A DNA stretch of 64,000 nt, from positions 1 through 64,000 of the IMG/VR virus record IMGVR_UViG_3300009164_005114. One strand, 5' to 3'. Below the pieces are notes generated by a model. The model saw only the letters and a program-made list of their open reading frames with translations, searched no databases and was not told where the DNA came from. Origin of the DNA: a virus. Positions 35,524 to 58,189 of the stretch are shown here, piece after piece (the first letter of the stretch is position 1; every line of letters starts with the position of its first letter). Both the position numbers and the translations under genes were made by a program.

Positions 35524-35859
35524 ATGGCAATATTAAGAACAATCCCATCTACAAGATTAATTAATGGGGAAATATTAGAAACTTCAGAAATTTCAATTGT
35601 GTCTGAAAGAGAATACTCAACTAACGGTGAGGAATGTGTTATCATTAGAAATGTATTGGAGTCTACAGTTACTTTAAACTCAAAAACTACTGACCATATT
35701 GTCGTAAAGGCAATGACAAGGATAACAATCAAACCTGACACAGGCAAAATTGACGAAGACTATGATGAAATAGTTGCCGACAAATATGCCTGTATTGAGT
35801 TTAGATTTTGTGCTGGTAATTGGTATATCTTATCTTCAGACGGTCTCAAGAATTCCTAA
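35524..35859 (+). CDS. Hypothetical beta-rich protein
   Basis: 111 aa coupled to the neck gene; overlaps the polymerase 3' end by 24 bp. Confidence 0.6.
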   Translation: MAILRTIPSTRLINGEILETSEISIVSEREYSTNGEECVIIRNVLESTVTLNSKTTDHIVVKAMTRITIKPDTGKIDEDYDEIVADKYACIEFRFCAGNWYILSSDGLKNS

Positions 35860-38565
35860 CTTTTCTTTCCACCCTTCTTCAGCTAATTCGTACATATAGT
35901 CAGGGTCTAAACCTCGTTTTTTCCAATATGACATTTCAGCATCTGTAATCGCTAACACGTCCTCCAATTTATCTTGACCTGACTCGTCAAATGGTTGACC
36001 ATTTATCAATTCACATTGTGCGGTTGTAAAGATACCTCTTTTTTCAGGGTCAGTAACAATTAAACCATTTCTCACTTCATCCTTAAAACAAACTAATAAC
36101 GGCTCAATTCTTTTATTAAAAGTGGTAATTGCTCTTGGGACATTATAATCACCTGTTAAATTAGGGTCATTGTCTAAAATGTCTTTATCTAACATATAAC
36201 AATTAATTTGAACTCCATCCCCTTTCTTTTGAACATCTCCATGAGACGATTTAAGTCCATTATTAACATACATAATAACATCACCTAAACTTACGTTTAA
36301 ATTTGATTGAAGAGCTAATTCCATGTGGGCCATTCTGCTCATACTATTACCCGATTTAGTTTTTTCTGTTAAACGTTTTTTGTAATCATCCATACTTAGT
36401 TTAACTTTCGCCCTTTGAGCGATTTTACTTAACGGTATCTTTTTATCAAAAATTGTCTGTAAGTACTCATAGTAATATTCAACAAACGCCTTACCATTGC
36501 CTTCAAGTAACATTTTAACACCTTTATCCAAAAAGGCCTCAATATACAATGGAAGTTTCTTTGATTTAATACTATTACCCGTTAATTTGATTTTACCTTT
36601 GGCATCCATAACCGCATAGTTCTTACGAGCTAAGTTGATGGTAGAAGGCCATATACCATCAGTATCAAGCGCCATCTCACCTCTCATGAATATATCATTA
36701 TACTCGGCAACATCGGCTTCAGGCCCAAAATATTCTTTACCCTCTTTAACTTTCCAATTCAATCCACGACCAACATAAACTCTATCGTTTGCCTCATCAG
36801 GAGTTGAGAAGTTAACACCATCCGTATCCATTACCAACGGAACGTATCCTTTAGTCATGAAGAACTTAATCATCTGACGAAGGTATTGTCTACCTGTACA
36901 GGTAATCTGTTCACCCATATACATGTCACCCCAAGCATAAACCTGAGGAGCGGATAATGCACCAAACATCGAGTTAATGAAAATCTTAATCGGTAACTGT
37001 TTATTACCATATGATTCAGACTTCTTACGGTCAACATTATAAAACTCTTCAGCAAGTTGTTTGTATTTGATACGGGTATTACGGAAGTAACTTAACATAC
37101 CTTTCATTGCACCTGTTACATCACAGTCAGGAAATACATCATGTACTAACTGAATAGAAGGGTATAGAGATGAGAAATCGAGTTTAAGTACGTTCTTACT
37201 ATAACCAACCTTAAGTAGTCGTGAAAGACCTCCTACAAAGTCTGTCTTACCTTGTTTTTCTGGAATAGCGAGCCCATGCTTATAAGACCAAGCTAACATT
37301 AACATTTTCCATAATGTTGCAGTACCCATGGTTGAAACCCTTTCGTATGTTGTTGGAATCATCGCAGCCAACAAGAAGGAACCTTGGTTGAACTCTTGGT
37401 CCACCTTAAGGGTTTCATCTAGGTCATCGTCAAGATACATCTCTACTAACTTATCACCTTTAATCTTATTGTATACGTCAGTACGTTTATCACAAATTTC
37501 ATCAATTTTAGAATCCACACCAACTTTTTTGTAATTACCGTTTTTAGTGTTTAACCAAAAGTCTTCTTTCTTTGAGTAGAATGGACCAATATCTAAATGG
37601 TCAATATAAACACGGTCAGGGGCTTCAGCATTAATATACTGAGTAATGTATTTCAATCCCGCAGATTTAATACTTGAATTGATTGCTTGTGCTCTACGAA
37701 CAGCATGAATAATATCAATTACATTATAACCCCAAATAGAAGTTTGAGTAAATGTCTCAACCTCATTCGCAAGTTTTAACATACTATCTTTTCTTGTGAA
37801 TGAATGTTGAGGATGTAATGATTTACAAATCTTCTTAGGGTCTATCCCCAATATTTGACATCTTTCAAAAATCCAATGCCAGTCGAAATTTGCTGAGTTG
37901 TAACCACCAATAATACTTGGTTTTAATTCATTAATAACATTAAAGAATTCAATGATGGCATTCTTTTCTTCTGCCTCATCCATACACTCAATAACTCGGT
38001 GATATCCTTTATTTGTTTTAATTCCAATCATGAAGATACGACCGTCCTTTGGTTCAAGAGCAGTCGTCTCTAAGTCATATACCATTCGGGTAACTTCTTC
38101 ATAATTCTCAAATCCTTTAAATAATCTTTTTTCTTTAGAGATTAAGTATTGTTCTACAGGAGGTAAAATCATTACTTTGTCTTTTGTTTTTTCACCCCAT
38201 GGGTCACAACCACCTTCTCTAAAGAACTGAATAAGCTCTCTATATCCTTTAAGTGATTTCACCATGAAAGTCATACCTTTTTGTAACCTTTCGTTACCGT
38301 GAGTTTCCAACTTCTCAATCATAATACCATGTTTGGACATGGCTTCTTTCTGAGCTGCTTTTGAATTACCGTAAAAGTTAATACCGCGTAAATCACCTAC
38401 CCATGCAAATGGGGTAAACGTATCCTTACGGATTTCTTTTCCTTTACCAGGAATCTCTTTAATTTTGTAAATGGAGTTGGATGCGTAGTCAAATTCTATT
38501 GCTACAATAAATTCTTCGGGGTCATTCCCGTGCAAGAACGATTCAATTTCTTCGTTAGATATCAT
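35836..38565 (-). CDS. Family B DNA polymerase
   Basis: ExoI YDLET, ExoII GYNSANFD, DFSSLYPSI, KIFINSMFG, MDTDG. Confidence 0.95.
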   Translation of the reverse strand: MISNEEIESFLHGNDPEEFIVAIEFDYASNSIYKIKEIPGKGKEIRKDTFTPFAWVGDLRGINFYGNSKAAQKEAMSKHGIMIEKLETHGNERLQKGMTFMVKSLKGYRELIQFFREGGCDPWGEKTKDKVMILPPVEQYLISKEKRLFKGFENYEEVTRMVYDLETTALEPKDGRIFMIGIKTNKGYHRVIECMDEAEEKNAIIEFFNVINELKPSIIGGYNSANFDWHWIFERCQILGIDPKKICKSLHPQHSFTRKDSMLKLANEVETFTQTSIWGYNVIDIIHAVRRAQAINSSIKSAGLKYITQYINAEAPDRVYIDHLDIGPFYSKKEDFWLNTKNGNYKKVGVDSKIDEICDKRTDVYNKIKGDKLVEMYLDDDLDETLKVDQEFNQGSFLLAAMIPTTYERVSTMGTATLWKMLMLAWSYKHGLAIPEKQGKTDFVGGLSRLLKVGYSKNVLKLDFSSLYPSIQLVHDVFPDCDVTGAMKGMLSYFRNTRIKYKQLAEEFYNVDRKKSESYGNKQLPIKIFINSMFGALSAPQVYAWGDMYMGEQITCTGRQYLRQMIKFFMTKGYVPLVMDTDGVNFSTPDEANDRVYVGRGLNWKVKEGKEYFGPEADVAEYNDIFMRGEMALDTDGIWPSTINLARKNYAVMDAKGKIKLTGNSIKSKKLPLYIEAFLDKGVKMLLEGNGKAFVEYYYEYLQTIFDKKIPLSKIAQRAKVKLSMDDYKKRLTEKTKSGNSMSRMAHMELALQSNLNVSLGDVIMYVNNGLKSSHGDVQKKGDGVQINCYMLDKDILDNDPNLTGDYNVPRAITTFNKRIEPLLVCFKDEVRNGLIVTDPEKRGIFTTAQCELINGQPFDESGQDKLEDVLAITDAEMSYWKKRGLDPDYMYELAEEGWKEKLGILETV

Positions 38566-38652: not shown

Positions 38653-39030
38653 TTAACAACAAGCAGTTTCTGAAATAAAACTTGGTTGAATATTAATATA
38701 TAACTCTTCTCTAATAGGTAGAATCAAATTACCTTCGTCATTCTTAATTAAAAACTGACCTACATATCGACCTGGGGTATTTGTATCCCTTGAACTAAAT
38801 TTGAAATAAATATAATATTCGGGTTCAGCACCTAAAGGTAAAATTAAATTTACTATTTCTGCAGGTGCCGACACAATTTTAGGAATTCCTGTTTCTACTT
38901 CTACCATAGTAAAAAAGATTGTTGAAACCGCCAAGTCCTCCATTAGTTGAAGATATCCTGACCTTCCGTCTTTAACTACCTGCATTTTTAATACAGGGAG
39001 TGTTGCGTTTTGTTTGATAAAGAATTCCAT
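38653..39030 (-). CDS. BppU-N-like (baseplate/fibre attachment) Ig-fold protein
   Basis: FFIKQNATLPVL...DTNTPGRYVGQF...LILP; preceded by TATTTAT. Confidence 0.55.
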   Translation of the reverse strand: MEFFIKQNATLPVLKMQVVKDGRSGYLQLMEDLAVSTIFFTMVEVETGIPKIVSAPAEIVNLILPLGAEPEYYIYFKFSSRDTNTPGRYVGQFLIKNDEGNLILPIREELYINIQPSFISETACC

Positions 39031-39046: not shown

Positions 39047-40723
39047 TTATGACTCTTTTCTTAAACTTCTTTCGTAATGTTCAAACCTATCGTGTTCTGT
39101 TGGTGTCATAAGTAGTAAGCCAGGATATAAATTTCCTTCTTTAACTAACTGATACATATGACTCATCCATGTTTGTTCAAATGGGTGTGCCCAAGTTGTA
39201 TCTAAAAACATTTTCTTATTACCTGTTCTGGTCACAATTTGTGGCCAGTTACAATAATACACTTCACCCGTAACATAAGGTATACCTTGGAATGTTCTAA
39301 TAGAATCATAAACAGCTTTAGGTGCATTTGGGTCAATACCTTGTTCAGGTAATCTATTTTTACCTGGCCAATATTTTTCTCTAACCACTTGTGGTACATT
39401 ATACCAAGACCACTGAGTACCATTATCACCAAAGAACTCACTAAAGTTTAACTTTAAAAAATCAAAGTTTTCTTTTTTTGCAATTTGTAATGTTTTTGAA
39501 TATAAATTAGGAACATACCTATTAAACCCATTTCTACAAACATGACCTTCATTTGGATAGAAAAACATATCATCTTCAAAAAATAAATAAAAATCTAAAT
39601 CGGTCTTTTCTTCAAAATGTTCGGCAATCCATTGTCTTCCACCACAAATACCTAAATTATCTTTTTTAATGTGTTCAAATCCATATTCTTGACAAATTCT
39701 GGCGTAATCATCAAATGTGGATGTGTCGGTAGAATTATCCAATAAAAACTTTTTAGTTTTTATAATATAATCCTTATCATAAGCATTCATTGAATCAATT
39801 AATGTTTGAAATTGTTTTGGACTATTAAATGTGATGACATACAAACCAACTTTATTAACATCTAAACTATTTGTAGATTTGTTAACATTTTCTGATTTAG
39901 GTGTAAGGTTATTATTCTTCAAGTCCTCAAAAAATTTACCAACTAAACCGTTAGATTCAATTTCAAAATAATTTACCAAATCTGAATGTTTATAACACAT
40001 AATACTGAAAATTGATTCTTCAGTACCCATATACCCTTCATCTAAAGTTGATTTTAATAATCCATAATAAATTCCGTTAATATCACCAATAGTGTGTTTT
40101 GGACCACCAAAGAACCCACCTCTTGCGACTTTATTAACTTTGGCACCCGCAATTGAATTTAACTTATTATATTCAAATCCGTGAATTTCATTTTCCGCAT
40201 CGTAAGGAAAACAAACGAATGAAAATTTTGAAATGTATTTTGATAAATTATCCAAAACTTTATCATGAGTAAAATAACCTGGATGAACAGTATTAGTTAA
40301 ACCACCATCAATCCAAAACATATATTCTGAATCAAACTGGTCCATTATTTTTGCATCGTGTAGCAAAAATACTTTAGACATAACTAATGGATTATAATTT
40401 TCTAATCTACCTTGGGTTGATTCTTTTAACCATCCTGATAAATTAGCCCACTCATCATTGGTTCTAATTTTTTGTATTTTATCAAAGAATTCAGAATCTC
40501 TAAACCATGATAATGGTCTAACAATAAATTGAGTATTTGATTGGTCTCTTCTTTTAAAAACAAACTCTTTTAATTCTTCATCACCAAAAATTATTAAGTT
40601 TTCCTCAACTTGTAATAATTTTTCAAATTGGTCTAAATAATGTTGGTAAGGTCTTGACCAACCTTCTGATAGTTCTCCTCTACCAATGTCCCATATACCT
40701 GTTACTAATGTTATATTACTCAT
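39047..40723 (-). CDS. Two-domain glycosyltransferase: HtrL/YibB-like + GT-A
   Basis: TLVTGIWDIGR, FWIDGG, GGFFGG, GTEESI; then YVITFNS, LLDNS, FFEDD. Confidence 0.7.
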   Translation of the reverse strand: MSNITLVTGIWDIGRGELSEGWSRPYQHYLDQFEKLLQVEENLIIFGDEELKEFVFKRRDQSNTQFIVRPLSWFRDSEFFDKIQKIRTNDEWANLSGWLKESTQGRLENYNPLVMSKVFLLHDAKIMDQFDSEYMFWIDGGLTNTVHPGYFTHDKVLDNLSKYISKFSFVCFPYDAENEIHGFEYNKLNSIAGAKVNKVARGGFFGGPKHTIGDINGIYYGLLKSTLDEGYMGTEESIFSIMCYKHSDLVNYFEIESNGLVGKFFEDLKNNNLTPKSENVNKSTNSLDVNKVGLYVITFNSPKQFQTLIDSMNAYDKDYIIKTKKFLLDNSTDTSTFDDYARICQEYGFEHIKKDNLGICGGRQWIAEHFEEKTDLDFYLFFEDDMFFYPNEGHVCRNGFNRYVPNLYSKTLQIAKKENFDFLKLNFSEFFGDNGTQWSWYNVPQVVREKYWPGKNRLPEQGIDPNAPKAVYDSIRTFQGIPYVTGEVYYCNWPQIVTRTGNKKMFLDTTWAHPFEQTWMSHMYQLVKEGNLYPGLLLMTPTEHDRFEHYERSLRKES

Positions 40724-41603
40724 ATATTCTATTGAATTCTTCTAAAATTTTATAAAAACTTTTATTTAATGTGAACATTTCATCTGTCACTCCTGCGGGT
40801 GCATTATCTCTACACCACCAAATATCAAAATGTTTTCTTTCAAATAATTCTTTATGATTGAAATACATTAAAGTCATAATTGGTTCTTCATGGTGTAAGT
40901 TCTTCGCATCTATTATAGTTTTTTCAGCATAATCTTCAAATAAATTTACAATTTCATCCCACTTGTCTCTGTGACCTCCAAACAATCCACCAATAATATG
41001 AAGACTTCTATCATATTCTTTGTACCACTTAGGGTCTAAAGTTTGTGACCAAAAGTTTCTATCATTTTCTTTACCGAGTATTAAAAACTTATCACCAGTA
41101 TCCTCAATCATGTTATGTAAAAAATCATTATTAAACAAACTACATTCATAGTATCTTTGCTCTGGATGAGTACCACTTAAATATTTTACAGGAACTAATC
41201 CACAATGAGATAAACCCGCATCAATCCAATAATAATAGTCGTAAGATTTATCTTCATTCCACCACCAATGAAATTTAGAATATTGAATTTCAACACATCT
41301 ATCAGATTTTTTAGTTTGCTCAACATTTTTATATTCTTTAATTAAATGTTGGAATTTAGTTGTTGAAATATCAAAAATTTCAAACTTTAATTTCTCAGAT
41401 GATATTGAATGTGTTTCGTAAAAGAATTTTTTTAATGGTTCTATTTCTCTTTCAGACGTATAACATAAGAAATCTGCGTCGGTCATTTTTAAAAGAGATA
41501 ATAAACTATAACTATAGTGACCCCCTCTATTCATTCTACCACCGTATTCGGTGCCATACAAATCACTATAGATTGATGTGATAAATTTAACTTTAGTTGA
41601 CAT
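40716..41603 (-). CDS. HtrL/YibB-like glycosyltransferase
   Basis: SKF, YYWIDAGL, IGGLFGG, EEPIM; paralog of the neighbour's N-terminal domain. Confidence 0.6.
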   Translation of the reverse strand: MSTKVKFITSIYSDLYGTEYGGRMNRGGHYSYSLLSLLKMTDADFLCYTSEREIEPLKKFFYETHSISSEKLKFEIFDISTTKFQHLIKEYKNVEQTKKSDRCVEIQYSKFHWWWNEDKSYDYYYWIDAGLSHCGLVPVKYLSGTHPEQRYYECSLFNNDFLHNMIEDTGDKFLILGKENDRNFWSQTLDPKWYKEYDRSLHIIGGLFGGHRDKWDEIVNLFEDYAEKTIIDAKNLHHEEPIMTLMYFNHKELFERKHFDIWWCRDNAPAGVTDEMFTLNKSFYKILEEFNRIYE

Positions 41604-42327
41604 ATGTGAATTGATTGTGTTCTTTATTGTTTTTTAATTCTTGGGTTAATATTCCACTTAAATATTGTGGTGGAATTTTACACGGACTATATAAATTCCA
41701 ATTATAAGTTTGAGTGTAAAAATTATTGTATTGTCCTTGTGACACATCAGACCAACTACTCATCTGAGGAGCCAATGGTAAAATTGGACAATAACTTTGT
41801 TTGATTGGTAATACAAATTGATAGATGTAATCATCAATTGCGTAGTACCCTAATTTTTCAGGTATTTCCATCTCTAATACATTATCATAGATTGAACTAT
41901 GATAAATCATCATATTAGTTGCAAATATACCTCTTTCGTGTTCTTGTTTTGGGGGTAAATTTGTTATATCTAAAAACAAAGGTTGTTCTTTACTACGAAG
42001 AACAGGTCTGTTTAAAGTAGGAGAAAGATTGATAATACCATATTCAAATTCACCACTTTCAGTTTCAATTTTATTAATTAAGTCTTTTGAGTATGGTAAA
42101 AAAGTACAATCATCTTCAATAACCATCACAGAGTCGTATCCCCTCTCTTTAGCAAGTTTAATAATTCCTGTATGAGATAAAGTACATCCTCCGTGATTGT
42201 TTAAATCAACAGCTTTAAATAATTCGTAATCCCATCCCATATAGTCCATCTCTTTTTGAATATGGTCTAATCGGTCAGGTCGTCTTTCTAAATTAACGAC
42301 AAATTTGGGAATGTTGGTAATATTCAT
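41593..42327 (-). CDS. GT25-family glycosyltransferase
   Basis: VVNLERRPDRL, GCTLSH, VIEDD. Confidence 0.85.
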   Translation of the reverse strand: MNITNIPKFVVNLERRPDRLDHIQKEMDYMGWDYELFKAVDLNNHGGCTLSHTGIIKLAKERGYDSVMVIEDDCTFLPYSKDLINKIETESGEFEYGIINLSPTLNRPVLRSKEQPLFLDITNLPPKQEHERGIFATNMMIYHSSIYDNVLEMEIPEKLGYYAIDDYIYQFVLPIKQSYCPILPLAPQMSSWSDVSQGQYNNFYTQTYNWNLYSPCKIPPQYLSGILTQELKNNKEHNQFTYVN

Positions 42328-43592
42328 TAACTAACGTGGTTGTGGGTTAATCTGCCTGTAATTCTATCACACCATCCTTTTGATTCTGAGTAAGGCCATA
42401 CTACCCAGTAAGAAGGTAATTCATCTGTTTGGAATTCTCTCCACACTTTACAATACTTATCAGGGTCTCTCATAAATCCTGCAATTTCATTCTTGTCTGC
42501 ATCTTTTCTGTATAAAGTTTCGTCTTTATCGTTATGGAATGCAACAACCCAAAAATCATAATCCGTTTCAGGTACTTGAGAATATCCGATATCAATACAA
42601 TGTTTAAACATCATACAGAAACTATCTTTCCATTCTTGTTCTGTCTCAAAATTATATGGGTTTGGTGGATAGTTTTTATCTAAAGTATATTTGTCAATTG
42701 CTCTTTTTTGGAATAAGATACCTGCATATTTTTCATACTCGGTTAAAGTTCTAACGGTACCAAAACCATAAGGACCATCATGACCTTCTTGAGTTTCACC
42801 ATCCATACCAAATAATTTTCTATTTGTTAAATGAGATACTCTGTTTCTTTCACCCCAACCTTTGTCATCATCCCATTGTTTTGTTCTACCTTTACGAGTG
42901 TATTCGTGGTAAACAACAGGAATATGTGGGTGGAATAAATCATAACCCCAAGTGTAAGCTCTTGCAGCAATTGAAATTTCTTCTCCGTGGAAATAATATT
43001 CAGGGTTGTGCTGAACTTCAGTTGAGAATTGTCCTAATGTAAAACAGAAGTGAGCTGAGTAGAATCTTGATGTTACAGGTTTTTTTAAATCTTTCCAACC
43101 TGGAATTGTTTCAGGTAAGAAGAATACTGCACCTTCAGGAATGAATCGGTCAAAAACCATTCTCCATGCATCAGGGGCTCTTCCTGCTGGGTCATTTTCG
43201 GGGTCAAAAGAAGGAACGTAGCCCGTAAGTAGAGGCTTCTTATACCCGTCCTTCTGTAACCCCTTTATCATTTTGATAAGGATATCGTCCCAATCCTTAA
43301 CAAATCTCATGTGAGAATCTATTTGTAGTGTATAAGTTTCACCTTTGTAAAGTTGTTGAACTTGGTGTCTCGCCCAACAAACACCTTTAGAATCTTGATA
43401 AGGAATATCTAAAATTCTAAATCTTTTGTCGTTTTTATACTCATCTAAATTATCAAAACCGTCTTCTTCACTGTATTGTCTTGCAATACCGAAAACTAAG
43501 TTATTTGGTTTTTTGGCGTTTTCCAACATGTCTTTAATTGTTGGGATTAACTGCGGGTCTCTGTATGAGGCAATTTGGATAAAAATCTTCAT
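42327..43592 (-). CDS. GT60-like polypeptide N-acetylglucosaminyltransferase (Gnt1/TcOGNT family)
   Basis: IFIQIASYRDP, GVCWAR, LQIDSHMRF..WD, FHGEEI...RAYTWGYDLFHP, YHEY. Confidence 0.85.
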   Translation of the reverse strand: MKIFIQIASYRDPQLIPTIKDMLENAKKPNNLVFGIARQYSEEDGFDNLDEYKNDKRFRILDIPYQDSKGVCWARHQVQQLYKGETYTLQIDSHMRFVKDWDDILIKMIKGLQKDGYKKPLLTGYVPSFDPENDPAGRAPDAWRMVFDRFIPEGAVFFLPETIPGWKDLKKPVTSRFYSAHFCFTLGQFSTEVQHNPEYYFHGEEISIAARAYTWGYDLFHPHIPVVYHEYTRKGRTKQWDDDKGWGERNRVSHLTNRKLFGMDGETQEGHDGPYGFGTVRTLTEYEKYAGILFQKRAIDKYTLDKNYPPNPYNFETEQEWKDSFCMMFKHCIDIGYSQVPETDYDFWVVAFHNDKDETLYRKDADKNEIAGFMRDPDKYCKVWREFQTDELPSYWVVWPYSESKGWCDRITGRLTHNHVS

Positions 43593-43617
43593 GTATGTTA
43601 TATTTTACCCTAAAAAT

Positions 43618-43649
43618 AAAAAACCCTCCACGAAGGTGAAGGGTTTTTT
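43618..43649 (-). terminator. Terminator between mucin-like genes and the GT operon
   Basis: Minus strand AAAAAACCCTTCAC-CTTC-GTGGAGGGTTTTTT. Confidence 0.75.
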
Positions 43650-43673
43650 ACATATATTAATTTTCTTTTTTTA

Positions 43674-44774
43674 TTAACATCCGTTAGGGTCAGAAGCGGT
43701 AATTAAACCAGCTCCACCACTAACTAAATACCATGCAGTACCGTTAGAATAATAACCATCTGCCGCCACAATTGATAATCCTGTGTTAACATATAATGTC
43801 TCACCAATGTTAGGTCCAGGTCCTTGAGATGCTGGTACATAAAGTGTGTTAGGTGCTGAACTAAAGTCGGTACATGCTAAATTTGATGTTGAACCTGTTC
43901 CCAGAATATAAGTATAATATCCGAATGTTGCGGTAGGTGTTGTAGTTACTGTAGGTGTGTTAGTTGGAGTTGAAGTATGAGTTGGTGTTGGAGTTTGTGT
44001 TGGTAATAATGAACATAATGAGAATCCTCCTGTTTCATTACCATTTGAATTTAATTGAACTACTTGTCCTGAGTTTGAATAGCAACCTGTCATATTAACA
44101 GTTACTGGTCCGTATACTAAATTAAAGAATTGTGTATTTTCATCAAAGTTTGCAAGTTCACCATAAATTGTTATTGATGGTGATGCGTTACATGCATCAT
44201 TACTTGTTAAACCTGTTGAAACTGAGAACGAAAATCTTGCTCTTGTTGGTGTAGGTGTGTTAGTTGGTGTTTCAGTTTGAGTCGGAGTTGGTGTAACTGC
44301 CGCAGTTCCTGTTTGTGTTGGAGTCGCAGTTAATGTTGTTGTGGTTGTTGGTGTTTGAGTTGGTGTTTCCGTATTAGTTGGAGTTGGTGTATTAGTTGGA
44401 GTTGCAGTTAATGTAGTTGTCGTTGTTGGTGTTTGAGTTGGTGTCTCCGTATTAGTTGTAGTTGGAGTTGGTGTAGGTGTTGTTCCAGGCGTTTGAGTAT
44501 TTGTTGGTGTTAAAGTTGGTGTTGGAGTTGCGGTCTTTGTCGGAGTTGGGGTACTAGTTGGATAATACATTGGATATGCTCCATTATTAACCAATACCAC
44601 ACTATTAACAAATGACGGTGCAATTGAATAAGTGTTGTTTATTAACCAAATATTTTTTGTTTGGTTTGGTAATAACTCAACTTGGTATTCCCACATTGAA
44701 TCGTCACATCTTCTATAATTGAAGTTTACAACGGTTGAACCCGTGTTTGTTAAGGTATATTTGCTACATGCCAT
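43674..44774 (-). CDS. Mucin-like Thr/Pro-repeat protein B (probable virion protein)
   Basis: TPT tracts separate three Cys-containing globular modules; no signal peptide; TATTTAT upstream. Confidence 0.8.
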
Positions 44775-44858
44775 CTTGATTTCTTTTTATAATATAAATA
44801 CTAAGTATTTGTTTATTAGATTCAATATTTCTAATTTTTTATTTTTTTAATTTTGTTC

Positions 44859-46610
44859 TTAGCACCCATTAGGGTCAGAACTTCCAATTTGACCTAAACC
44901 ACCACTAACTAAGTACCATGCAGTACCATTAGAATAGTAACCATCCGCGGCTGGTGTTGTTAATGAAGTATTAACATATAAGTACTCGCCAACATTAGGA
45001 CCAGTCCCTTGAGATACTGGTGCATAAAGAGTATTAGGGGCGGAACTAAAGTCAGCACACGCGGTGTTTGTTGTTAATCCCGTACCTAAAATATATGTGT
45101 AATACCCAAATGTTGCTGTAGGTGTTGTTGTTGGTGTAGGTGTTGGAGTTTGAGTTAAAAGTGAACATAATGAGAATACTCCTACATAGTTACCGTTAGA
45201 GTCTAACTCAACTACTTGTCCTGAATTTTTATAATAACCTGTCATATTCACCGTCACTGGTCCATAAAGAGAATTAAAGAATTGCGTATTTTCGTCAAAG
45301 TTTACAAATTCACCATAAATTGTTATTGAAGGTGACGCATCACACGCATCGTATTGAGTGGTCCCTGTTGAAACTGAGAACGAGAATCTTGTTCTTGTTG
45401 GTGTTGGAGTTTGAGTTGGTGTTTCGGTATTAGTTGGTGTTTGAGTTTGAGTTGGTGTTTTGGTATTAGTTGGTGTTTGAGTTGGTGTTTGAGTTGGTGT
45501 TTCCGTGTTAGTTTGTGTAGGTGTTTGAGTTTGAGTCTCAGTATTTGTAGGTGTTTGTGTAGGTGTTTGAGTTTGAGTCTCAGTATTTGTAGGTGTTTGT
45601 GTAGGTGTTTGAGTTTGAGTCTCAGTATTTGTAGGTGTTTGCGTTTGTGTTGCAGTATTACTTGGGGTTTGGGTAGGTGTAGGTGTTTTTGTTGAAGTAT
45701 TAGTTGGTGTTGCAGTTGGAGTTGGTAAAGGACATCCTCCTAATAATACAATATTACCATCACCATATGCAATTTGAATTGTTTCCGCACAATAAATTTG
45801 AGTTGTAAATACATCTAAGAAGAAATCAAATTCAAACCCATCACAATCAATACCAACAAAAGTTGTTTGATTTTGAGTTCCACCAAACAATAAATAAGTT
45901 TTACATATTGAATTAGTAGGTGTTTGAGTTTGAGTTGGTGTTAATGTCGGAGTATTAGTTGAAGTTTCTGTGTTAGTTGGTGTTAAAGTTTGTGTAGGTG
46001 TTTGAGTTGGAGTTTCCGCAGCAGTCCCTGTATTTGTAGGTGTATTTGTTGGCGTTTCCGTGTTAGTTGGTGTAGTTGTTGGGGTTGAGGTGTTAGTCGT
46101 GGTATTACTAGGTGTGTTTGTTGGAGTTTCCGTGTTAGTTGGAGTTGCTGTAGGAGTTAATCCAATAGTAACAGATGGGGTTGGTGTCATTGTTTCGGTT
46201 GGAGTTTGAGTTGGGGTTTCAGTTGTTGTTGAGGTTGGAGTAACTGTTGAGGTTACTGTTGCGGTTGGTGTTACTGTTGCAGTTGACGTAGGAGTTAATG
46301 TAGGAGTTTCCGTAGGTGTTGGCGTTAATCCTTCTGTTTGAGTTGGAGTTTGAGTTGGAGTTGAAGTGTTGGTTGGTGTATTTGTTTGAGTTGGCGTAGG
46401 ACTAGGTGTTGGACCTGGAACATTTAATGTGTAGGTATAACCATAAGTTGGTACATATAAATCATAGATACCGTAATAATAACTAGATATATAGTTAAAC
46501 GGAATTATTTGCGTTCCCAAATCAATAGTACCTCCCGTGTCTGGAAAATACGTAACTTGTGAGGTTTGCCCACTTAAATTATCACTTTCAATTCTTATTC
46601 CTAATGCCAT
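44859..46610 (-). CDS. Mucin-like Thr/Pro-repeat protein A (probable virion protein)
   Basis: Three TPT tracts; the last two modules are paralogous to protein B (both end SDPNGC). Confidence 0.8.
   Translation of the reverse strand: MALGIRIESDNLSGQTSQVTYFPDTGGTIDLGTQIIPFNYISSYYYGIYDLYVPTYGYTYTLNVPGPTPSPTPTQTNTPTNTSTPTQTPTQTEGLTPTPTETPTLTPTSTATVTPTATVTSTVTPTSTTTETPTQTPTETMTPTPSVTIGLTPTATPTNTETPTNTPSNTTTNTSTPTTTPTNTETPTNTPTNTGTAAETPTQTPTQTLTPTNTETSTNTPTLTPTQTQTPTNSICKTYLLFGGTQNQTTFVGIDCDGFEFDFFLDVFTTQIYCAETIQIAYGDGNIVLLGGCPLPTPTATPTNTSTKTPTPTQTPSNTATQTQTPTNTETQTQTPTQTPTNTETQTQTPTQTPTNTETQTQTPTQTNTETPTQTPTQTPTNTKTPTQTQTPTNTETPTQTPTPTRTRFSFSVSTGTTQYDACDASPSITIYGEFVNFDENTQFFNSLYGPVTVNMTGYYKNSGQVVELDSNGNYVGVFSLCSLLTQTPTPTPTTTPTATFGYYTYILGTGLTTNTACADFSSAPNTLYAPVSQGTGPNVGEYLYVNTSLTTPAADGYYSNGTAWYLVSGGLGQIGSSDPNGC
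45511..45636. repeat. Three perfect 42-bp tandem repeats (coding 14-aa TPTNTETQTQTPTQ unit)
   Basis: gtttgtgtaggtgtttgagtttgagtctcagtatttgtaggt x3. Confidence 0.9.
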
Positions 46611-46643
46611 GTCAATAAATACTTAATTTTTTTGTTTTATTCT

Positions 46644-48650
46644 TTAAACTATACGACCAATTCCATTTATTACTACATATCTCAAATCGTTTTGAGGTAT
46701 TAAAATATATTCCAAATCATCATCAGGTATTAATAAATAAACCAAATCTTCATCTGGAATTACTACATATGTCAAATCATTTTGAGGAACAATAATCGCA
46801 CAATCAGGGCAAATAGGATTTAATAATCCATATTTATTTTTTAATAATTTAAAGTTGTGTTTAATTTGTGATGCATTGAGAGGTTCTGTATACATTCTAA
46901 ACGCACTAATGTCACCAATCATACTACCCCCAAAAATTTCTTCTAATCTAACATGAGTTGTAAGACCCGAATATTCTGTGTGGTCTAAATCGTATGTCGT
47001 TAAACACTCAGGGTCTTGTTGGTAAACAATCTCGTTTATATTTGGAGGACATCCTCCTGAGAATGTTAAATTATCGTGAAGTCCTTGAGTACCTCCACCT
47101 ATTGAAATGTTATATCCAACGCCAATTTGTTTTTCTTTTGGAGTGTTAAGTAACCTTGGGATAATTTCTTCAAAATTTTCTGTGACCATGAACAATTTAC
47201 CATTAACATAGAATTTTAATGTTCCCATTCTATATTTTTGCTCTTCAGTCCACATGTCAGTAAATGTTACAACCTCAGTTGTTGCTGGGTCATAACTTGG
47301 GTCATGAGTTATTGGAGGTTCAATTAAACTAACACTTCTACCTTCAATAGTTGCAAAATAAACATCTTTAACTAAAAGACCTAATCCACCTTTATCATAT
47401 AAATCACAAGTATCTAACCATTCATATCTTTGGAAAACCGCATCAATTTGAACCCAATGTTCCAAATTAATATATGGTGTTAATTTACATTCATCAAAAA
47501 TCCCTCTTGTTGAACACCATTCAGTTACTGAAGTCCCTGTTACATATGTTAAACCTGTAAGACAAGTTCCAGTGTGTTCACACCCACCAGTAATTCTATA
47601 TGTCTTAACACATAATCTTGGGTTTCCACTATCACCACTAAGTCTTAATGATAAACCATTTGAAACTCCATCATACAATGGGTCTGTTTCAGGGTATTGC
47701 GCCTTTGAATCACAATCACAAGGACAACCACAAGTACAATGCGTTATTGTGCCACCCGATGGTTGGTAAACTTGTAAACATTCTGATGATGTGTTTGCCG
47801 AACTTGCACAACCACAAGTATGCATACAAGTTAATCCTGACGTAACTCTTGTATATCCAGTATCTTGTATTGGACTTCCGTCGGCGTAATGGTAATATTT
47901 GTTTTCAGCTCTTGCCCCCATATAAAAGAAGGTACCTTTATTATCAGGATATCTTTCATTCAATCCCACAGAAGTATCACCAGTCCACCTATATCTTAAC
48001 ATGAACTCGGTTGTCCAACCTAAAGGAACTCTTTGAGGAAATACTTGATAATCATAACCTGGTACTTTGTAGAATCCTTGGAAGAACCCTCCATTTAATT
48101 TCGCAACATACCCAATATTTCCACCAACATTTTGGTAAGATAAGTCGTAATTATAGGAATTATCATTCCATAATCTATTTTCAGTTGTTGTAAAACCTGT
48201 GATTGGGTGGAGTTTCATTCTCCTATCGTATTTGTATCTACTAAATCTATCAGATACATTTTCATATAAACCAGTAGTAATTTCAATAGTTTCTCCTGAC
48301 ATATGTTGAACCAAACCATTATCCATACCTGTTAATCCAATGTCACATAACTCTGTAGTTTTTACACAAAAATTTGGATTGATGTCTTCAGGGTTCCAAT
48401 AGTTTTCAGAAACAATTGTTTGATAATCAAAAGAACACGCAGATATTTGGCATAATGTTGTTCCAGTGCTATTAAATTCAAATTTAAATGGCATTCTATT
48501 TCCATCTTCCTCACCTATTAATAGTGGAGAAAATATAACTTCTTGGTCATAGTCTTTTTCATCCGACGCTAAACAAATATCGGTTACTTCGTTGACTGGT
48601 TTAAGACCCCAACGTCTAAAATTATATTGATTAATATTCTGATATGCCAT
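46644..48650 (-). CDS. Cys-rich structural protein with LamG/concanavalin-A-like domain
   Basis: LKFYVNGKL, IGGGTQG, GDISAFRMYTEPLNASQIKHNF; C-terminal 10-aa repeats. Confidence 0.7.
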   Translation of the reverse strand: MAYQNINQYNFRRWGLKPVNEVTDICLASDEKDYDQEVIFSPLLIGEEDGNRMPFKFEFNSTGTTLCQISACSFDYQTIVSENYWNPEDINPNFCVKTTELCDIGLTGMDNGLVQHMSGETIEITTGLYENVSDRFSRYKYDRRMKLHPITGFTTTENRLWNDNSYNYDLSYQNVGGNIGYVAKLNGGFFQGFYKVPGYDYQVFPQRVPLGWTTEFMLRYRWTGDTSVGLNERYPDNKGTFFYMGARAENKYYHYADGSPIQDTGYTRVTSGLTCMHTCGCASSANTSSECLQVYQPSGGTITHCTCGCPCDCDSKAQYPETDPLYDGVSNGLSLRLSGDSGNPRLCVKTYRITGGCEHTGTCLTGLTYVTGTSVTEWCSTRGIFDECKLTPYINLEHWVQIDAVFQRYEWLDTCDLYDKGGLGLLVKDVYFATIEGRSVSLIEPPITHDPSYDPATTEVVTFTDMWTEEQKYRMGTLKFYVNGKLFMVTENFEEIIPRLLNTPKEKQIGVGYNISIGGGTQGLHDNLTFSGGCPPNINEIVYQQDPECLTTYDLDHTEYSGLTTHVRLEEIFGGSMIGDISAFRMYTEPLNASQIKHNFKLLKNKYGLLNPICPDCAIIVPQNDLTYVVIPDEDLVYLLIPDDDLEYILIPQNDLRYVVINGIGRIV

Positions 48651-48702
48651 ATGATATTGATAAATACCTTGTGTCCTAGTATTTATAGATAAAAAAGAAG
48701 AG

Positions 48703-49997: not shown

Positions 49998-50291
49998 ATG
50001 GCACAACAAACAACAGTTGATTTAAACCAAAATGAACCAAACGCAATGACAGCAATTGCAGAACAAGAAAGAGCTAAATTGATTCCTAAAAACGATTATA
50101 ATCAAGCGGGTAATCCTTATTCTTCTGTAAACAAAGATGCGGTTGCCGATGGTGACTCTATGGGTAGAGGTACAGGCTCTTTTTTAGATGTTTATAACGT
50201 AAACGCGGGAACGATAGATGATATCGTGGAAAGAAAAAGTGAGGTAAAAATCAATCAATACAATTCATCAAAAACATACCCTAATTTCTAA
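49998..50291 (+). CDS. Hypothetical protein
   Basis: 97 aa, in operon. Confidence 0.65.
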   Translation: MAQQTTVDLNQNEPNAMTAIAEQERAKLIPKNDYNQAGNPYSSVNKDAVADGDSMGRGTGSFLDVYNVNAGTIDDIVERKSEVKINQYNSSKTYPNF

Positions 50292-50770
50292 TGAAACTAC
50301 AAGGAGCATTAAAAGGTTTAATTTGTGAAATCGCGTCTTTAGATGGTATTGTCGATGCTATTAAAGGACGAAAAGTTGTTATTATTTATTACGATGGTGA
50401 TGAACCAGGTGGTAGAGGACTAAGACAAATTGAGCCAGTATGCTTAGGAGTTAGTAAAGCGGGTAATAAAGTTTTAAGAGCTTGGGATTCAGAGGGGTCG
50501 TCTCACACTGCTTATGAAGGAGACCAACCATTACCAGGGTGGAGATTATTTAGGTTAGATAAAATTCTATCTAACAAACCTACGGGTGAGGTTTACAATG
50601 AACCCAAACCTGGTTATAATTTTAACGGAGACAAAAGTATGGTTAGTGTTATTATTAATGCTAAGTTTGATAATACACCACCACAACCTCAAACGCCACC
50701 AACACCACAACCTGAAACACCACCAACACCTGAAACTCCACCAACACCAGAAGAAGAAAATTTAACATAA
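50291..50770 (+). CDS. Stand-alone WYL-domain protein with Pro/Thr tail
   Basis: IYYDG...R.IEPVCLG...LRAW...WRLFRLDKI. Confidence 0.8.
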   Translation: MKLQGALKGLICEIASLDGIVDAIKGRKVVIIYYDGDEPGGRGLRQIEPVCLGVSKAGNKVLRAWDSEGSSHTAYEGDQPLPGWRLFRLDKILSNKPTGEVYNEPKPGYNFNGDKSMVSVIINAKFDNTPPQPQTPPTPQPETPPTPETPPTPEEENLT

Positions 50771-51467: not shown

Positions 51468-52682
51468 ATGTCAAAAATTAAAATCTTAGTAGTACCATCC
51501 GACAGAACTGGTGTCGGAAAATTTAGGTCAGTCGACCCTCACGTATTCTTACAAAACTTGTATGGAGACGAATTCCATGTAGATATAGTTTATGAAGTTC
51601 CTTATGAGGATATGAAATTTTGGTCTCAGTATCAAATTGTTTCATATCATAGAAGTATTGGTCCTGATTTTGATAAATCACATGAACTTATTCAAAAATT
51701 AAATTCATTAGGAATTATCACTGTTTGTGATATTGATGATTATTGGATGCCAGGAAGAGAGCACCCAATTCATGATATTATTAGAGTAAATAAGATTAAT
51801 GAAAAAATTGTTGCAAGTCTTAGAGTTTCACAATATGTGACAACTACAACAAATATTTTTGCAGATGAAATCAGAAAAATAAATAAAAATGTTTCTGTTT
51901 TTCCAAATGCAATTAACCCTAATGAACCACAATTTAAAGAACCTACTTTAGAATCAGATAGATTGAGGATTGGTTGGCTAGGGGGTTCTTCTCACTTACA
52001 CGACATTCAGTTATTAGACCAATCTTTTGGTAGAATGACATCCGCTAAAGATAAGGTACAATTTGTATTGTGTGGATTTGATACAAGAGGTAGTGTTACC
52101 GAAATTAATCAACAAACAGGTGAACACAAAAGAAGAGATATTTTACCTCATGAAACTGTTTGGGCTCAATACGAAAAAATATTTACACAAAATTATTCTA
52201 TAGTTTCTGAAGATTATAAAAAACATCTATTAAATTATAATCAATTACCTTATGAAAATGAGGCGAATGAGGCTTATATTAGAGTATGGACAAAACCTGT
52301 TACATCTTACGCTAAGAATTATTCAAAATTTGACGTATCTTTGTCTCCAATCAAAAACAATATGTTTAATAGAATGAAGTCTCAATTAAAAGTTATTGAA
52401 GCTGGATTCTATAAGAAAGCCCTTATTGCTTCAGATTTGGGGCCATATACCATAGATTTAAAACACTGTTTAAATCATGGTAATTTTGTTGATGGTAACG
52501 CACTTTTAGTTGATGAAAAAAGAAATCATTCTGATTGGGCGAAATTTATTGACAAACTTATTAAAAACCCAAATATGGCAAAAGACATGGGTGAAAGATT
52601 ATATGAAACCGTTAAAGACACATATGACTTAAATATTGTAACAAAAAGTAGAGCAGAATTTTACAAATCTTTAATTAAATAA
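51468..52682 (+). CDS. GT-B (GT4-like) glycosyltransferase
   Basis: DIDDYW, IGWLGGSSH, FNRMKSQLKVIEAG, IASDLGPY. Confidence 0.8.
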   Translation: MSKIKILVVPSDRTGVGKFRSVDPHVFLQNLYGDEFHVDIVYEVPYEDMKFWSQYQIVSYHRSIGPDFDKSHELIQKLNSLGIITVCDIDDYWMPGREHPIHDIIRVNKINEKIVASLRVSQYVTTTTNIFADEIRKINKNVSVFPNAINPNEPQFKEPTLESDRLRIGWLGGSSHLHDIQLLDQSFGRMTSAKDKVQFVLCGFDTRGSVTEINQQTGEHKRRDILPHETVWAQYEKIFTQNYSIVSEDYKKHLLNYNQLPYENEANEAYIRVWTKPVTSYAKNYSKFDVSLSPIKNNMFNRMKSQLKVIEAGFYKKALIASDLGPYTIDLKHCLNHGNFVDGNALLVDEKRNHSDWAKFIDKLIKNPNMAKDMGERLYETVKDTYDLNIVTKSRAEFYKSLIK

Positions 52683-52685
52683 CAA

Positions 52686-53980: not shown

Positions 53981-53990
53981 AAAATAAATA

Positions 53991-58188: not shown

Positions 58189-58189
58189 A

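Follow-up and report, generated by a model that had tools for sequence, protein, structure and literature searches.

A GT60-like glycosyltransferase encoded beside Thr-Pro-rich modular proteins in a freshwater jumbo phage: a candidate protein O-glycosylation module

A GT60-like enzyme was found to be encoded next to two modular proteins with long Thr-Pro (PT) tracts on the minus strand of the window, the 64,000-nucleotide stretch of DNA analysed here, which comes from an uncultured freshwater jumbo phage. Because distant phages and members of several bacterial phyla show the same pairing of such an enzyme with PT tracts, the phage probably sugar-coats its Thr-Pro tracts. A cytoplasmic, phage-encoded protein O-glycosylation module, with the GT60-like enzyme priming the tracts, is the best explanation and in our judgement probably the correct one. 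The GT60-PT link itself is well supported by comparative genomics.

The initial annotation had described a LamG-like protein, two mucin-like proteins and four glycosyltransferase (GT) genes in this order on one strand. Order, strand and coordinates were all recovered, running from p668 through PT583, PT366, the GT60-like gene, GT25 and H295 to H558. The features of the locus are as follows.

48660-48667, minus strand: GTATTTAT motif, 9 nt 5' of the p668 start codon
46644-48650, minus strand: p668, 668-aa soluble protein with a ConA-like/LamG-type jelly-roll core (AF2)
46615-46622, minus strand: GTATTTAT motif, 4 nt 5' of the PT583 start codon
44859-46610, minus strand: PT583, Thr/Pro modular protein, candidate acceptor
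44794-44801, minus strand: GTATTTAT motif, 19 nt 5' of the PT366 start codon
43674-44774, minus strand: PT366, Thr/Pro modular protein, candidate acceptor
43623-43637, minus strand: terminator-like hairpin and T-run between PT366 and the GT60 gene
42327-43592, minus strand: GT60-like, PF11397, proposed initiating polypeptide transferase
41593-42327, minus strand: GT25, PF01755, member of the variable cassette
40716-41603, minus strand: H295, HtrL-like, single domain, member of the variable cassette
39047-40723, minus strand: H558, HtrL_YibB-like N-terminal half and probable GT-A C-terminal half
38653-39030, minus strand: p125, conserved small 125-aa ORF between H558 and PolB
35836-38565, minus strand: family B DNA polymerase (PolB), PF00136 and PF03104, phrog_262 with E 4e-49
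51468-64000, plus strand: island of soluble GT and nucleotide-sugar genes, continuing to ~70.9 kb of the contig

That the four GT genes overlap had been noted; the overlaps measure 1, 11 and 8 nt. The PT genes had also been said to lead directly into them; the order holds, but an intrinsic terminator (6-bp stem, 3 GC pairs, TTTTTATTTT tail) lies between PT366 and the GT60 gene, so that substrates and enzymes form separate transcription units. The contig contains eight copies of GTATTTAT, six of them no more than 20 nt upstream of a start codon, and no motif of this type was found ahead of the GT genes. The shorter TATTTAT is also found ahead of structural genes, that of the tail sheath among them. 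GTATTTAT is possibly a late-promoter element, although it is short and AT-rich in a genome of 31% GC. The nine operon proteins examined, enzyme and candidate substrates included, showed no transmembrane segment or signal peptide (maximum KD19 1.29), in agreement with the initial reading. At the other end, the BppU-like label proved weak: p125 (64–93% identity in relatives) has no Pfam or PHROG match, its one link to BppU being an ESM Atlas language-model feature match of 0.96 to a cluster in which 16% of the members carry BppU_N. The next large gene is PolB, which is the downstream boundary and lies outside the glycosylation system. The whole PT/GT block is located outside the tail gene cluster (8–31 kb), between the replication genes and the sugar island. 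The latter encodes GT4-like, GT2_5+GT4, UDP-Glc dehydrogenase, GT2, methyltransferase, UDP-galactopyranose mutase, GT10, GT11, epimerase, DegT and GDP-mannose dehydratase proteins, and possibly serves as a donor-supply and extension set.

The product of 42327-43592 matched PF11397 with an E-value of 1.3e-65 (222.6 bits, cut-off 21) and phrog_24687 with 1e-167. Judged by its sequence, it is a genuine soluble member of the PF11397/GT60 family, as first proposed. A D92-S93-H94 (DSH) motif was invariant in phage and metagenomic homologues with identities as low as 46%, and an additional conserved region occupies residues ~295–421 at the C-terminal end. Metagenomic homologues of the enzyme number more than 7,300. 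Every GT60 enzyme characterised so far is a polypeptide alpha-GlcNAc transferase, acting either in mucin-type initiation in protists or as the cytoplasmic Skp1 Gnt1 (PMC8724618, PMC6939170). The donor, linkage and acceptor suggested for the phage enzyme are extrapolated from these protist proteins. Five of the phage records were searched for a prolyl 4-hydroxylase domain and gave no match, which makes a Hyp acceptor less likely and favours Thr.

The calls for the partner enzymes were largely borne out. The GT25 product matched PF01755 (E 5.7e-12), and its gene is missing or replaced in about one third of 80 related loci. H295 had no Pfam match; its HtrL-like character was recovered by hhalign of its profile against the HtrL half of H558 (probability 98%, E 1e-13, 222 columns). 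For H558, described as an HtrL plus GT-A fusion, the first half stands (residues 3–252, HtrL_YibB, PF09612, E 5.1e-21), while the C-terminal half is a probable GT-A domain, on the basis of invariant N61/S62 and E114-D115-D116 residues (NS..D and EDD motifs) and a weak PF00535 match in a fused homologue. Full-length H558 homologues of 39–64% identity were located a few genes from GT60, usually downstream, in XacN1-type phages and 12 bacterial loci. H558 is thus a conserved GT60 partner in most phage and bacterial loci, being absent from the two T6SS loci.

The mucin-like character of the two candidate acceptors was evident from their composition: PT583 contains 177 Thr and 67 Pro in 583 residues (30% Thr, 11.5% Pro), and PT366 93 Thr and 39 Pro in 366 residues (25% Thr). 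The PT-gene DNA shows tandem arrays with periods of 12–84, one with 3.1 copies at 100% identity; the PT proteins are real and non-random. Among 75 contig ORFs, only PT583, PT366 and one small protein carried such tracts. PT583 is composed of an N-terminal domain followed by long Thr/Pro tracts between a Cys module, M1 and M2 (globular segments 1–62, 234–291, 410–482 and 504–583), and its C-terminal 189 residues are 64–69% identical to PT366. The latter has a conserved N-terminal domain (1–67), a PT tract (68–180), M1 (181–255), a further PT tract and M2 (286–366), with a conserved Cys pair in each domain. In the AF2 model, M1 and M2 reached a pLDDT of ~85–88 and the PT tracts ~35, i.e. disordered. 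No recognisable fold was obtained for M1 or M2 (best Z 5.3), and the PT proteins and modules matched no structural PHROG or Pfam family.

For p668, the LamG-like label was right at the level of fold only; a Pfam search of the protein itself gave no match. The AF2 model (pLDDT 80, pTM 0.81) matched the ConA-like CBM of AbnA domain 4 with a Z of 15.8 (VIA) and the tailspike of cyanopodophage Pan3 with 15.6 over 234 aligned residues. PT tracts were present in 123 of 152 p668 homologues, starting at about residue 620–650 in most of those inspected. These relatives show a core, a PT linker and swappable tip modules, some of the tips being PF13385 or PF03382.

Co-occurrence of GT60 and PT repeats in related phages, which the initial annotation had put forward as a check, was observed. 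All 35 IMG/VR loci covering the p668-GT60 interval from end to end contained at least one PT-tract ORF in it, the number, length and module order of these ORFs varying among loci. XacN1, Xoo-sp13 and 13 further XacN1-type IMG/VR loci retain GT60 (44–50% identity) and H558, and most of them also have a homologue of H295. The PT genes of XacN1-type phages are located away from the GT genes; XacN1 encodes at least 10 proteins with long PT tracts, several of them beside its tail sheath gene. At the genome level, DNA coding for T-P-T-x-T-P-T was counted. Seven GT60-positive jumbo phages had 51, 51, 22, 59, 76, 90 and 14 sites, and five GT60-negative ones (1.85 Mb), among them RaK2, a distant relative of XacN1, had none. 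Fisher's exact test by hand gave ~0.0013 for 7 versus 5 phages, but as the GT60-positive phages represent only two or three lineages, this 7-versus-0 contrast overstates their independence.

The same association was found in bacteria. In Jiulongibacter (4.5 Mb), all five TPTxTPT sites fall in a single gene between two PF11397 genes. In Verrucomicrobia, 25 of 31 sites lie 2.6 kb from GT60; Paraherbaspirillum has 14 of 17 in a VgrG gene, 3 kb away from two GT60 genes in tandem, and Acidobacteriota 16 of 26 in VgrG paralogues 8–18 kb away. S/T/P-tract neighbours were also seen in Saprospiraceae, Lewinellaceae and Gemmatimonadaceae loci. Outside Jiulongibacter, the bacterial PT proteins near GT60 are T6SS VgrG spikes or bear Tat-like signals (in Saprospiraceae, a T9SS tail). 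The link therefore extends over two jumbo-phage lineages and at least four bacterial phyla, far beyond the conserved synteny of close relatives. PF11397 is rare, occurring in one of 401 Bacteroidota genomes sampled, namely the Jiulongibacter genome on which that sample was centred.

It was considered whether the PT proteins, even if glycosylated by GT60, might never reach the virion and instead be soluble or released (adhesins, decoys or matrix-binding proteins) or intracellular, leaving no virion glycocalyx. The lack of structural family matches, the position of the block outside the tail cluster and the cell-surface or secreted nature of the bacterial counterparts are in line with this, but we regard it as rather unlikely. 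A well-conserved N-terminal domain with shuffled distal modules is typical phage-fibre architecture, the p668 fold resembles a phage tailspike and relatives bear lectin-like swappable tips, XacN1, whose virions are PAS-positive, has PT genes adjoining that of the tail sheath, and the VgrG spikes near bacterial GT60 are homologues of phage tail parts.

The GTs and the island might otherwise make or remodel a non-protein glycan, such as host LPS or capsule (superinfection exclusion) or glycosylated phage DNA, with the PT genes as mere hot-spot neighbours. HtrL/YibB and GT25 are LPS-associated families, the GT genes adjoin replication genes (PolB), and Iyer et al. interpreted the GT clusters of jumbo cyanophages as altering polysaccharides on the host surface (PMC7824862). 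Phage GTs are known to hypermodify DNA (as cited in PMC12619734), and complete relatives have a ThyA-like gene. This nevertheless seems unlikely. None of the nine operon proteins examined has a transmembrane segment, the scanned portion of the island ORFs contained no flippase, polymerase or initiating transferase family, polypeptides are the substrates of all characterised GT60 enzymes, and coincidence at a hot spot does not explain why PF11397 is paired with PT tracts in two phage lineages as well as four bacterial phyla. It appears decidedly improbable that the PT tracts are plain, unglycosylated flexible linkers and that the enzyme modifies a single site elsewhere (Skp1-type or EF-P-type). 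Gnt1, the best-studied cytoplasmic GT60, indeed has one substrate, Skp1, and PT linkers are widespread without known glycosylation; however, a prolyl hydroxylase was not found in the five phage records, and such a role hardly accounts for the concentration of PT-coding sequence by PF11397 genes genome-wide in bacteria or for the five GT60-negative jumbo phages devoid of these tracts.

The proposed module resembles the serine-rich-repeat adhesin systems of Gram-positive bacteria, which comprise GtfA/GtfB, extending GTs and an accessory Sec. There too, a long low-complexity repeat is primed with O-GlcNAc at multiple sites in the cytoplasm and extended by variable neighbouring GTs, which are encoded next to the substrate gene; their GT4/GT-B initiator, Ser-rich repeats and SecA2/Y2 export have no counterpart in this phage. 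Chloroviruses and mimiviruses likewise use virus-encoded, soluble, ER/Golgi-independent GTs and nucleotide-sugar enzymes on structural proteins, but they are giant viruses of eukaryotes, whose glycans are attached, by N-linked or other linkages, to the major capsid protein or the fibrils. To our knowledge, PT mucin domains initiated by a GT60 enzyme have not been reported for them. The phage enzyme shares its Pfam family and a DxH-type motif (DSH) with the protist GT60 proteins (T. cruzi OGNT, Dictyostelium pp-alphaGlcNAcT and Skp1 Gnt1). It is like Gnt1 in being soluble and would act in the cytoplasm, and like the Golgi enzymes in that its suspected acceptors are dense, Thr-rich mucin-like tracts. 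In contrast to the mucin-type enzymes it lacks a membrane anchor, and in contrast to the Skp1 pathway no partner prolyl hydroxylase was found; the extra conserved C-terminal region of ~125 residues and the phage and scattered bacterial encoding are further differences.

The closest precedent is the Xanthomonas jumbo phage XacN1, whose ORF334 is 46% identical to the GT60-like protein. Its ORF332 (31% identity to H295) and ORF330 correspond by homology to H295 and H558, keep their order and lie near the DNA polymerase gene. XacN1 differs in a carbamoyltransferase between the GTs and in PT-tract genes located elsewhere in the genome. Its virions contain at least two PAS-positive proteins, in bands that carry no protein assignment, and its authors proposed phage GTs as makers of virion glycoproteins and drew the parallel to chloroviruses and mimiviruses, not remarking on the PT tracts or the GT60 family (PMC5852040). 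In mycobacteriophages, phage-encoded GTs act on the phage's own structural proteins while these are still in the cytoplasm, ahead of release (Freeman et al. 2023, as cited in PMC12619734). The GTs of that system belong to other families and act on the C-terminal ends of capsid and tail-tube subunits of small actinophages, unlike the long PT stalks of modular proteins here. The PAS-positive XacN1 proteins, mycobacteriophage virion glycosylation and protist GT60 mucins are thus prior art. A eukaryote-like pathway in a phage, as the initial annotation put it, is too strong, because the same cassette occurs, if rarely, in bacteria, and virion glycosylation is documented in mycobacteriophages and was proposed for XacN1, which carries the ORF334 homologue. 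What that annotation had observed was confirmed; its interpretation was partly supported.

For the glycosylation module, the first step would most likely be transfer of a sugar by the soluble GT60 enzyme to Thr of the Thr-Pro tracts, by family precedent alpha-GlcNAc from UDP-GlcNAc. PT583 and PT366 are the likely acceptors, as would be the p668 family in relatives. H558, the conserved two-domain partner, may extend the glycan, and the swappable GT25 and H295 may vary it, perhaps with the nucleotide-sugar/GT island. The acceptors combine an N-terminal domain that is well conserved with stalks of disordered PT sequence and distal modules that are shuffled, and in this they resemble appendage or decoration proteins, which we infer to be carried on the virion; they would be made late and probably be freed in a folded state at lysis. 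Once glycosylated, the PT stalks would adopt an extended form and resist proteases, and they may constitute the virion glycocalyx of stiff fibres that was initially envisaged.

The window covers the first 64 kb of a single viral contig of 82,855 bp (~31% GC, 28% completeness by CheckV). The contig carried genes for tail sheath, baseplate hub, helicases, a family B polymerase and PhoH, which identified it as part of the genome of a large myovirus. DNA near-identical to it was found in freshwater metagenomes of many studies, and IMG/VR relatives reached up to 309 kb and were rated complete; megablast of a 9.6-kb stretch against 50,697 phage records gave no match. A recently named aquatic jumbo-phage lineage ('moraphage') was reported to have Bacteroidota hosts and four core glycosyltransferase (GT) groups (PMC12619734), and the phage of the window may belong to the same group. 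The genes named in the initial annotation were all found in place on the minus strand:

46644-48650, minus: p668, protein of Concanavalin A (ConA)/LamG-type fold
44859-46610, minus: PT583, Thr-Pro (PT) tract protein
43674-44774, minus: PT366, PT-tract protein
42327-43592, minus: GT60-like gene
41593-42327, minus: GT25 gene
40716-41603, minus: H295, HtrL-like
39047-40723, minus: H558, HtrL-like plus second half
38653-39030, minus: p125, ORF of 125 aa

In two lake metatranscriptome runs, parts of H558, GT25, PT366 and PT583 were matched identically by short contigs; these carry no expression levels and may be DNA carry-over, and the lack of cover of p668 in the same runs is uninformative. Elsewhere in the window (32850-34379, plus), a 509-aa protein was observed whose residues 36-226 form a complete Fe/Mn superoxide dismutase (Sod_Fe_N + Sod_Fe_C), followed by ~280 residues without family match; a TATTTAT motif lies upstream of its gene.

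The DxH-type metal/nucleotide-sugar motif is defining for the GT-A core of GT60 and GT27 enzymes. The 421-aa product of 42327-43592 was found to be an unambiguous member of PF11397 (GlcNAc), scoring 222.6 bits (cut-off 21; E = 1.3e-65), as the GT60-like assignment had anticipated. PF11397 was precomputed on 120 of the 120 homologues listed, more than 7,300 metagenomic homologues were counted, and D92-S93-H94 was invariant in the GT60 alignment (A1), the Xanthomonas jumbo phages XacN1 and Xoo-sp13 included. Every GT60 enzyme characterised so far is a polypeptide alpha-GlcNAc transferase; those of protists start mucin-type chains on Ser/Thr-rich domains, and the cytoplasmic Gnt1 acts on a hydroxyproline of Skp1 (PMC8724618, PMC6939170). 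Unlike the Golgi mucin-type pp-alphaGlcNAcT, which has a type II membrane anchor and acts in the lumen, the phage enzyme had no anchor and no hydrophobic segment (maximum KD19 of 0.88). In this it resembles the soluble Skp1 Gnt1; however, the latter depends on a partner prolyl 4-hydroxylase that makes the Hyp acceptor, and such a partner was not found for the phage enzyme. Prolyl hydroxylase PF13640 was absent from the window's contig (28% complete), two complete relatives (G001 and G002), XacN1 and Xoo-sp13, which makes Thr the likelier acceptor. Considering the genomic association with PT-tract proteins, transfer from UDP-GlcNAc with a retaining alpha-linkage to a polypeptide hydroxyl is a candidate activity. 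Nothing meaningful came from PDB sequence searches, whether queried with the GT60-like protein, H558 and p668 or with the A1 and A6 profiles.

The GT25 and HtrL calls also held. The 244-aa GT25 protein matched PF01755 (46.4 bits versus a cut-off of 24, E = 5.7e-12), the best stretch covering residues 6-45 only. Residues 3-252 of H558 (558 aa) matched HtrL_YibB (PF09612, 75.9 bits versus 24.1) but scored 84 against the NCBIfam equivalog TIGR02192, below its cut-off of 264.9, which indicated a member of the HtrL_YibB family and no YibB orthologue. H295 (295 aa) had no Pfam hit, and its profile aligned with the HtrL half of H558 at an hhalign probability of 98%. The C-terminal half of H558 is a candidate GT-A/GT2-like domain, in which N61/S62 and E114-D115-D116 were invariant; this half in the window's own protein had no Pfam or PDB sequence match, and a fused homologue showed a weak PF00535 match (E = 9e-4) at the equivalent place. 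GT25 and H295 were missing or replaced in about one third of 80 related loci. The supposed BppU-like gene was present as p125, with the family B DNA polymerase gene (35836-38565) as the next large gene; the BppU_N relation is a language-model lead only (ESM Atlas feature score of 0.96 to a cluster with BppU_N, PF10651, in 16% of members), and p125 had no Pfam or PHROG match even at E up to 10. At the same Pfam limit, the PT-protein modules, H295, the C-terminal half of H558, p668 and p125 gave only a chance-level gp37_C match.

For p668 (668 aa), the AF2 model (pLDDT 80) showed a ConA/LamG-type jelly roll, similar to the carbohydrate-binding domain 4 of AbnA (VIA Z 15.8, rmsd 3.0, 201 residues aligned) and the Pan3 tailspike of a cyanopodophage (VIA Z 15.6, 234 aligned). 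By its predicted fold, p668 falls within the Concanavalin A-like lectin/LamG superfamily. The earlier 'LamG-like' label was thus borne out by the modelled fold but not by Pfam, because no domain, Laminin_G_3 included, was detected in p668 itself, and PF13385 occurred in this family only in C-terminal extensions of homologues. PT tracts were present in 123 of 152 p668 homologues, mostly directly after the conserved core in those inspected, and some homologues carried lectin-like or DUF285 tips after the tract; the p668 family belongs to the same class as the PT proteins. At the C-terminus of p668 itself (window 46644-46800, residues ~617-660), four tandem 10-residue repeats of (Q/E/D)(N/D)DLxY(V/L/I)(V/L)IP type, of low confidence in the model, stand where most relatives go on into a PT linker and tip modules.

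Phage fibres and decorations usually combine a conserved base with variable tips borne on linkers. PT583 and PT366 contained 30% and 25% Thr, respectively, in tracts encoded by imperfect tandem DNA repeats, and shared two C-terminal modules. In relatives, the interval between p668 and the GT60 gene was hypervariable in length; each of the 35 loci that fully span it encoded one or more PT-tract ORFs, in most cases two to four. These proteins were built from two well-conserved N-terminal domains (mostly 72-91% identity); behind these come PT stalks and the modules M1, M2 and a Cys module, which are shuffled and duplicated (35-73% identity) and each keep a Cys pair. AF2 modelled M1 and M2 confidently and the PT tracts as disordered. 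Fold searches with the PT366 model against 48,161 chains gave at most Z 4.1 for M1 and M2, to which no fold was assigned, and a best Z of 5.3 for PT366, on its low-confidence N-terminal domain. The conserved base and variable tips suggest that the PT proteins are phage fibres or decorations. As had been noted for enzyme and substrates, none of the operon proteins contained a hydrophobic segment.

Within the PT tracts, perfect or near-perfect DNA repeats were observed at window 45511-45641 (42-nt unit, 3.1 copies, 100% identity) and 44317-44465 (78-nt unit, 1.9 copies, 92%), which point to recent expansion. In metagenome contigs these tracts were joined in many alternative ways, which may reflect length variation in the population or artefacts of assembling the repeats. 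The only other Pro/Thr tract in the contig (PPTPxxETPPTP) was in a small protein with a weak WYL-domain match at window 50291-50770 (plus). In a region of the complete 309-kb relative G001 that lies outside the window's contig (72.8-88.5 kb, L139:2784-18538), the genes of four PT-tract proteins (772, 822, 505 and 262 aa) form a second cluster, which adjoins that of a 1,459-aa protein with an M2-like module; a PHROG scan of this cluster returned unknown-function families only.

The PT genes had been described as followed directly by the GT genes. The gene order was as described, but a good intrinsic terminator lies between PT366 and the GT60 gene. The genes of p668, PT583 and PT366 each have the motif GTATTTAT 4-19 nt ahead of the start codon, and the shorter TATTTAT precedes tail sheath and other structural genes. 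Contig-wide, TATTTAT (often GTATTTAT) stood 4-36 nt upstream of many start codons, and 18 of 46 copies were at most 60 nt upstream of a gene. Examples are:

TATTTAT motif, window positions 28787, 21175, 23081, 31008, 44794, 46615 and 48660

Judged from its placement, TATTTAT may be a late-promoter element, and the motif before the p668, PT583 and PT366 genes is a weak hint of late expression.

The co-occurrence of GT60 and PT proteins extended to other phages. The T-P-T-x-T-P-T DNA pattern had 14-90 matches in each of seven GT60-positive jumbo phages and none in 1.85 Mb of five GT60-negative ones (reversed-pattern controls, 0-1 matches). As the positives represent only two or three lineages, this contrast is suggestive and not a clean statistic. 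The GT60, H295 and H558 genes were kept together in XacN1 and Xoo-sp13, and 13 further XacN1-type IMG/VR loci had GT60 and H558, several also with an H295 homologue; in many of these loci a carbamoyltransferase stands between the GT genes. The XacN1-type loci have no PT gene next to the GT genes, yet their genomes are rich in PT tracts, which were present in at least 10 proteins of XacN1, several of them encoded beside the tail sheath gene. At least two proteins of XacN1 virions were reported to be PAS-positive, and the authors suggested ORF328/ORF334 as the genes that make them (PMC5852040). In a further phage clade (L130:73-2509 and L132:8761-11197), the gene directly upstream of a shorter PF11397 gene (403-aa product, ~40% identical) encoded a 402-aa protein bearing an S/T/P-rich stretch, and there was no homologue of H558 nearby.

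In a scan of one bacterial genome per species, PF11397 homologues of 43-73% identity were found in 21 records, 12 of which had a full-length H558 homologue close to the GT60 gene and one more a C-terminal fragment. In most loci with enough flank, an S/T/P-tract protein was encoded one to three genes from GT60. Bacterial regions of note were:

L108:2943-13145: Jiulongibacter sediminis JN14-9 cassette (similar: L114, L097, L099)
L112:11900-14389: Paraherbaspirillum soli VgrG region
L142:521-10463: VgrG region of an Acidobacteriota MAG

In Jiulongibacter sediminis (4.5 Mb), all five pattern matches fell in one 262-aa gene between two PF11397 genes, with UDP-glucose dehydrogenase, epimerase, carbamoyltransferase and an FkbM methyltransferase-HtrL-GT fusion as neighbours. 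The JN14-9 cassette reads UDP-Glc dehydrogenase, epimerase, short PF11397 GT, PT-tract protein (with a twin-arginine-like N-terminus), long PF11397 GT, carbamoyltransferase and fusion. The carbamoyltransferase is common to this cassette and XacN1, which hints at a carbamoylated sugar. In a verrucomicrobial genome, 25 of 31 matches lay 2.6 kb from GT60. In Paraherbaspirillum soli, 14 of 17 were in the (TP)n tail at the C-terminus of a VgrG spike (E = 1e-127), 3 kb from a tandem GT60 pair, and in the Acidobacteriota genome 16 of 26 were in four tandem VgrG paralogues 8-18 kb from GT60, each with the PT linker right after the spike core. Read from their N-termini, Bacteroidota and verrucomicrobial PT proteins had twin-arginine-like motifs, which no HMM confirmed; those of Saprospiraceae ended in a T9SS sorting domain. 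PF11397 occurred in one of 401 Bacteroidota genomes sampled, namely the sample's centre genome (Jiulongibacter). Because the family is so rare in bacteria, chance adjacency to PT-tract genes is very unlikely, and the bacterial loci are stronger evidence for the GT60-PT link than the phage contrast. The two T6SS loci had no H558 homologue, leaving GT60 as the common denominator, which would fit a tract-recognising, initiating enzyme.

A further set of sugar genes adjoins the operon:

51468-64000 of the window, on to ~70.9 kb of the contig (L001:1-7901), plus: GT and nucleotide-sugar island

It encodes GT4-like, GT2_5+GT4, GT2, GT10, GT11 and GT1-like transferases, UDP-Glc dehydrogenase, UDP-galactopyranose mutase, GDP-mannose 4,6-dehydratase, an epimerase/reductase, a DegT-family enzyme and a methyltransferase. 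This island may contribute to glycan variation. No flippase, polymerase or initiating transferase families were detected among the island ORFs scanned.

Gram-positives are known to prime repeat adhesins in the cytoplasm. Since characterised GT60 enzymes act on polypeptides, the phage enzyme is soluble and no prolyl hydroxylase was found, we propose priming in the cytoplasm: the GT60-like enzyme would prime the PT tracts, H558, the conserved partner, would extend the glycan, and the swappable genes between them (GT25, H295) would vary it. VgrG spikes leave the cytoplasm folded, as phage appendages presumably do, and the same would hold for the bacterial PT proteins only if their twin-arginine-like motifs prove to be genuine Tat signals. 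Exit in the folded state would be the unifying point, consistent with glycosylation before release. Alternatively, the GTs might modify host glycan or DNA and not the PT proteins. This explanation is weakened, since nothing among the operon proteins and the island ORFs scanned indicates a membrane-bound pathway, the GT60 family acts on polypeptides and the link to PT tracts is widespread. A PF00303 search found a single ThyA-like gene in each complete genome, which was uninformative either way on DNA hypermodification. The enzyme may instead modify a single site of another protein, but this leaves the genomic PT pattern unexplained. The PT proteins, which match no known structural family, may not be on the virion.

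Phage GT-dependent glycans on capsid or tail-tube C-termini are described for mycobacteriophages, as cited in PMC12619734. For the present system, the one related experimental datum is the PAS staining of XacN1 virions. Mycobacteriophage virion glycosylation and GT60 mucin initiation in protists are thus already known, and XacN1 virion glycosylation has been suspected. The new element is the combination in which a GT60-type initiator with an HtrL-type partner goes together with Thr-Pro linkers, be these in phage appendage-like proteins, in T6SS spikes or in surface proteins that are exported; no description of it was found in the literature searched. We tentatively put forward, with more doubt than confidence, that PF11397 marks a prokaryote-wide cytoplasmic mucin-type O-glycosylation of Thr-Pro linkers on proteins that are folded before they exit the cell (jumbo-phage fibres or decorations, T6SS VgrG spikes and perhaps surface proteins exported by Tat, which in Saprospiraceae would be sorted by T9SS). 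The cassette would pass between phages and their hosts, and its swappable extension GTs would give phage particles and injection spikes a strain-specific, arms-race surface glycan. The model can be tested directly: two of the bacterial carriers exist as cultured isolates, and for XacN1 there are both a culture and public virion proteomics.

If true, very abundant freshwater jumbo phages would decorate their own appendages via a eukaryote-type mucin initiator, and the appendage glycans would affect host recognition, protease resistance and particle behaviour in water. It would explain why long Thr-Pro tracts occur in some phage lineages only, suggest that T6SS spikes can be glycosylated, and provide the first function for prokaryotic PF11397 and HtrL-like proteins.
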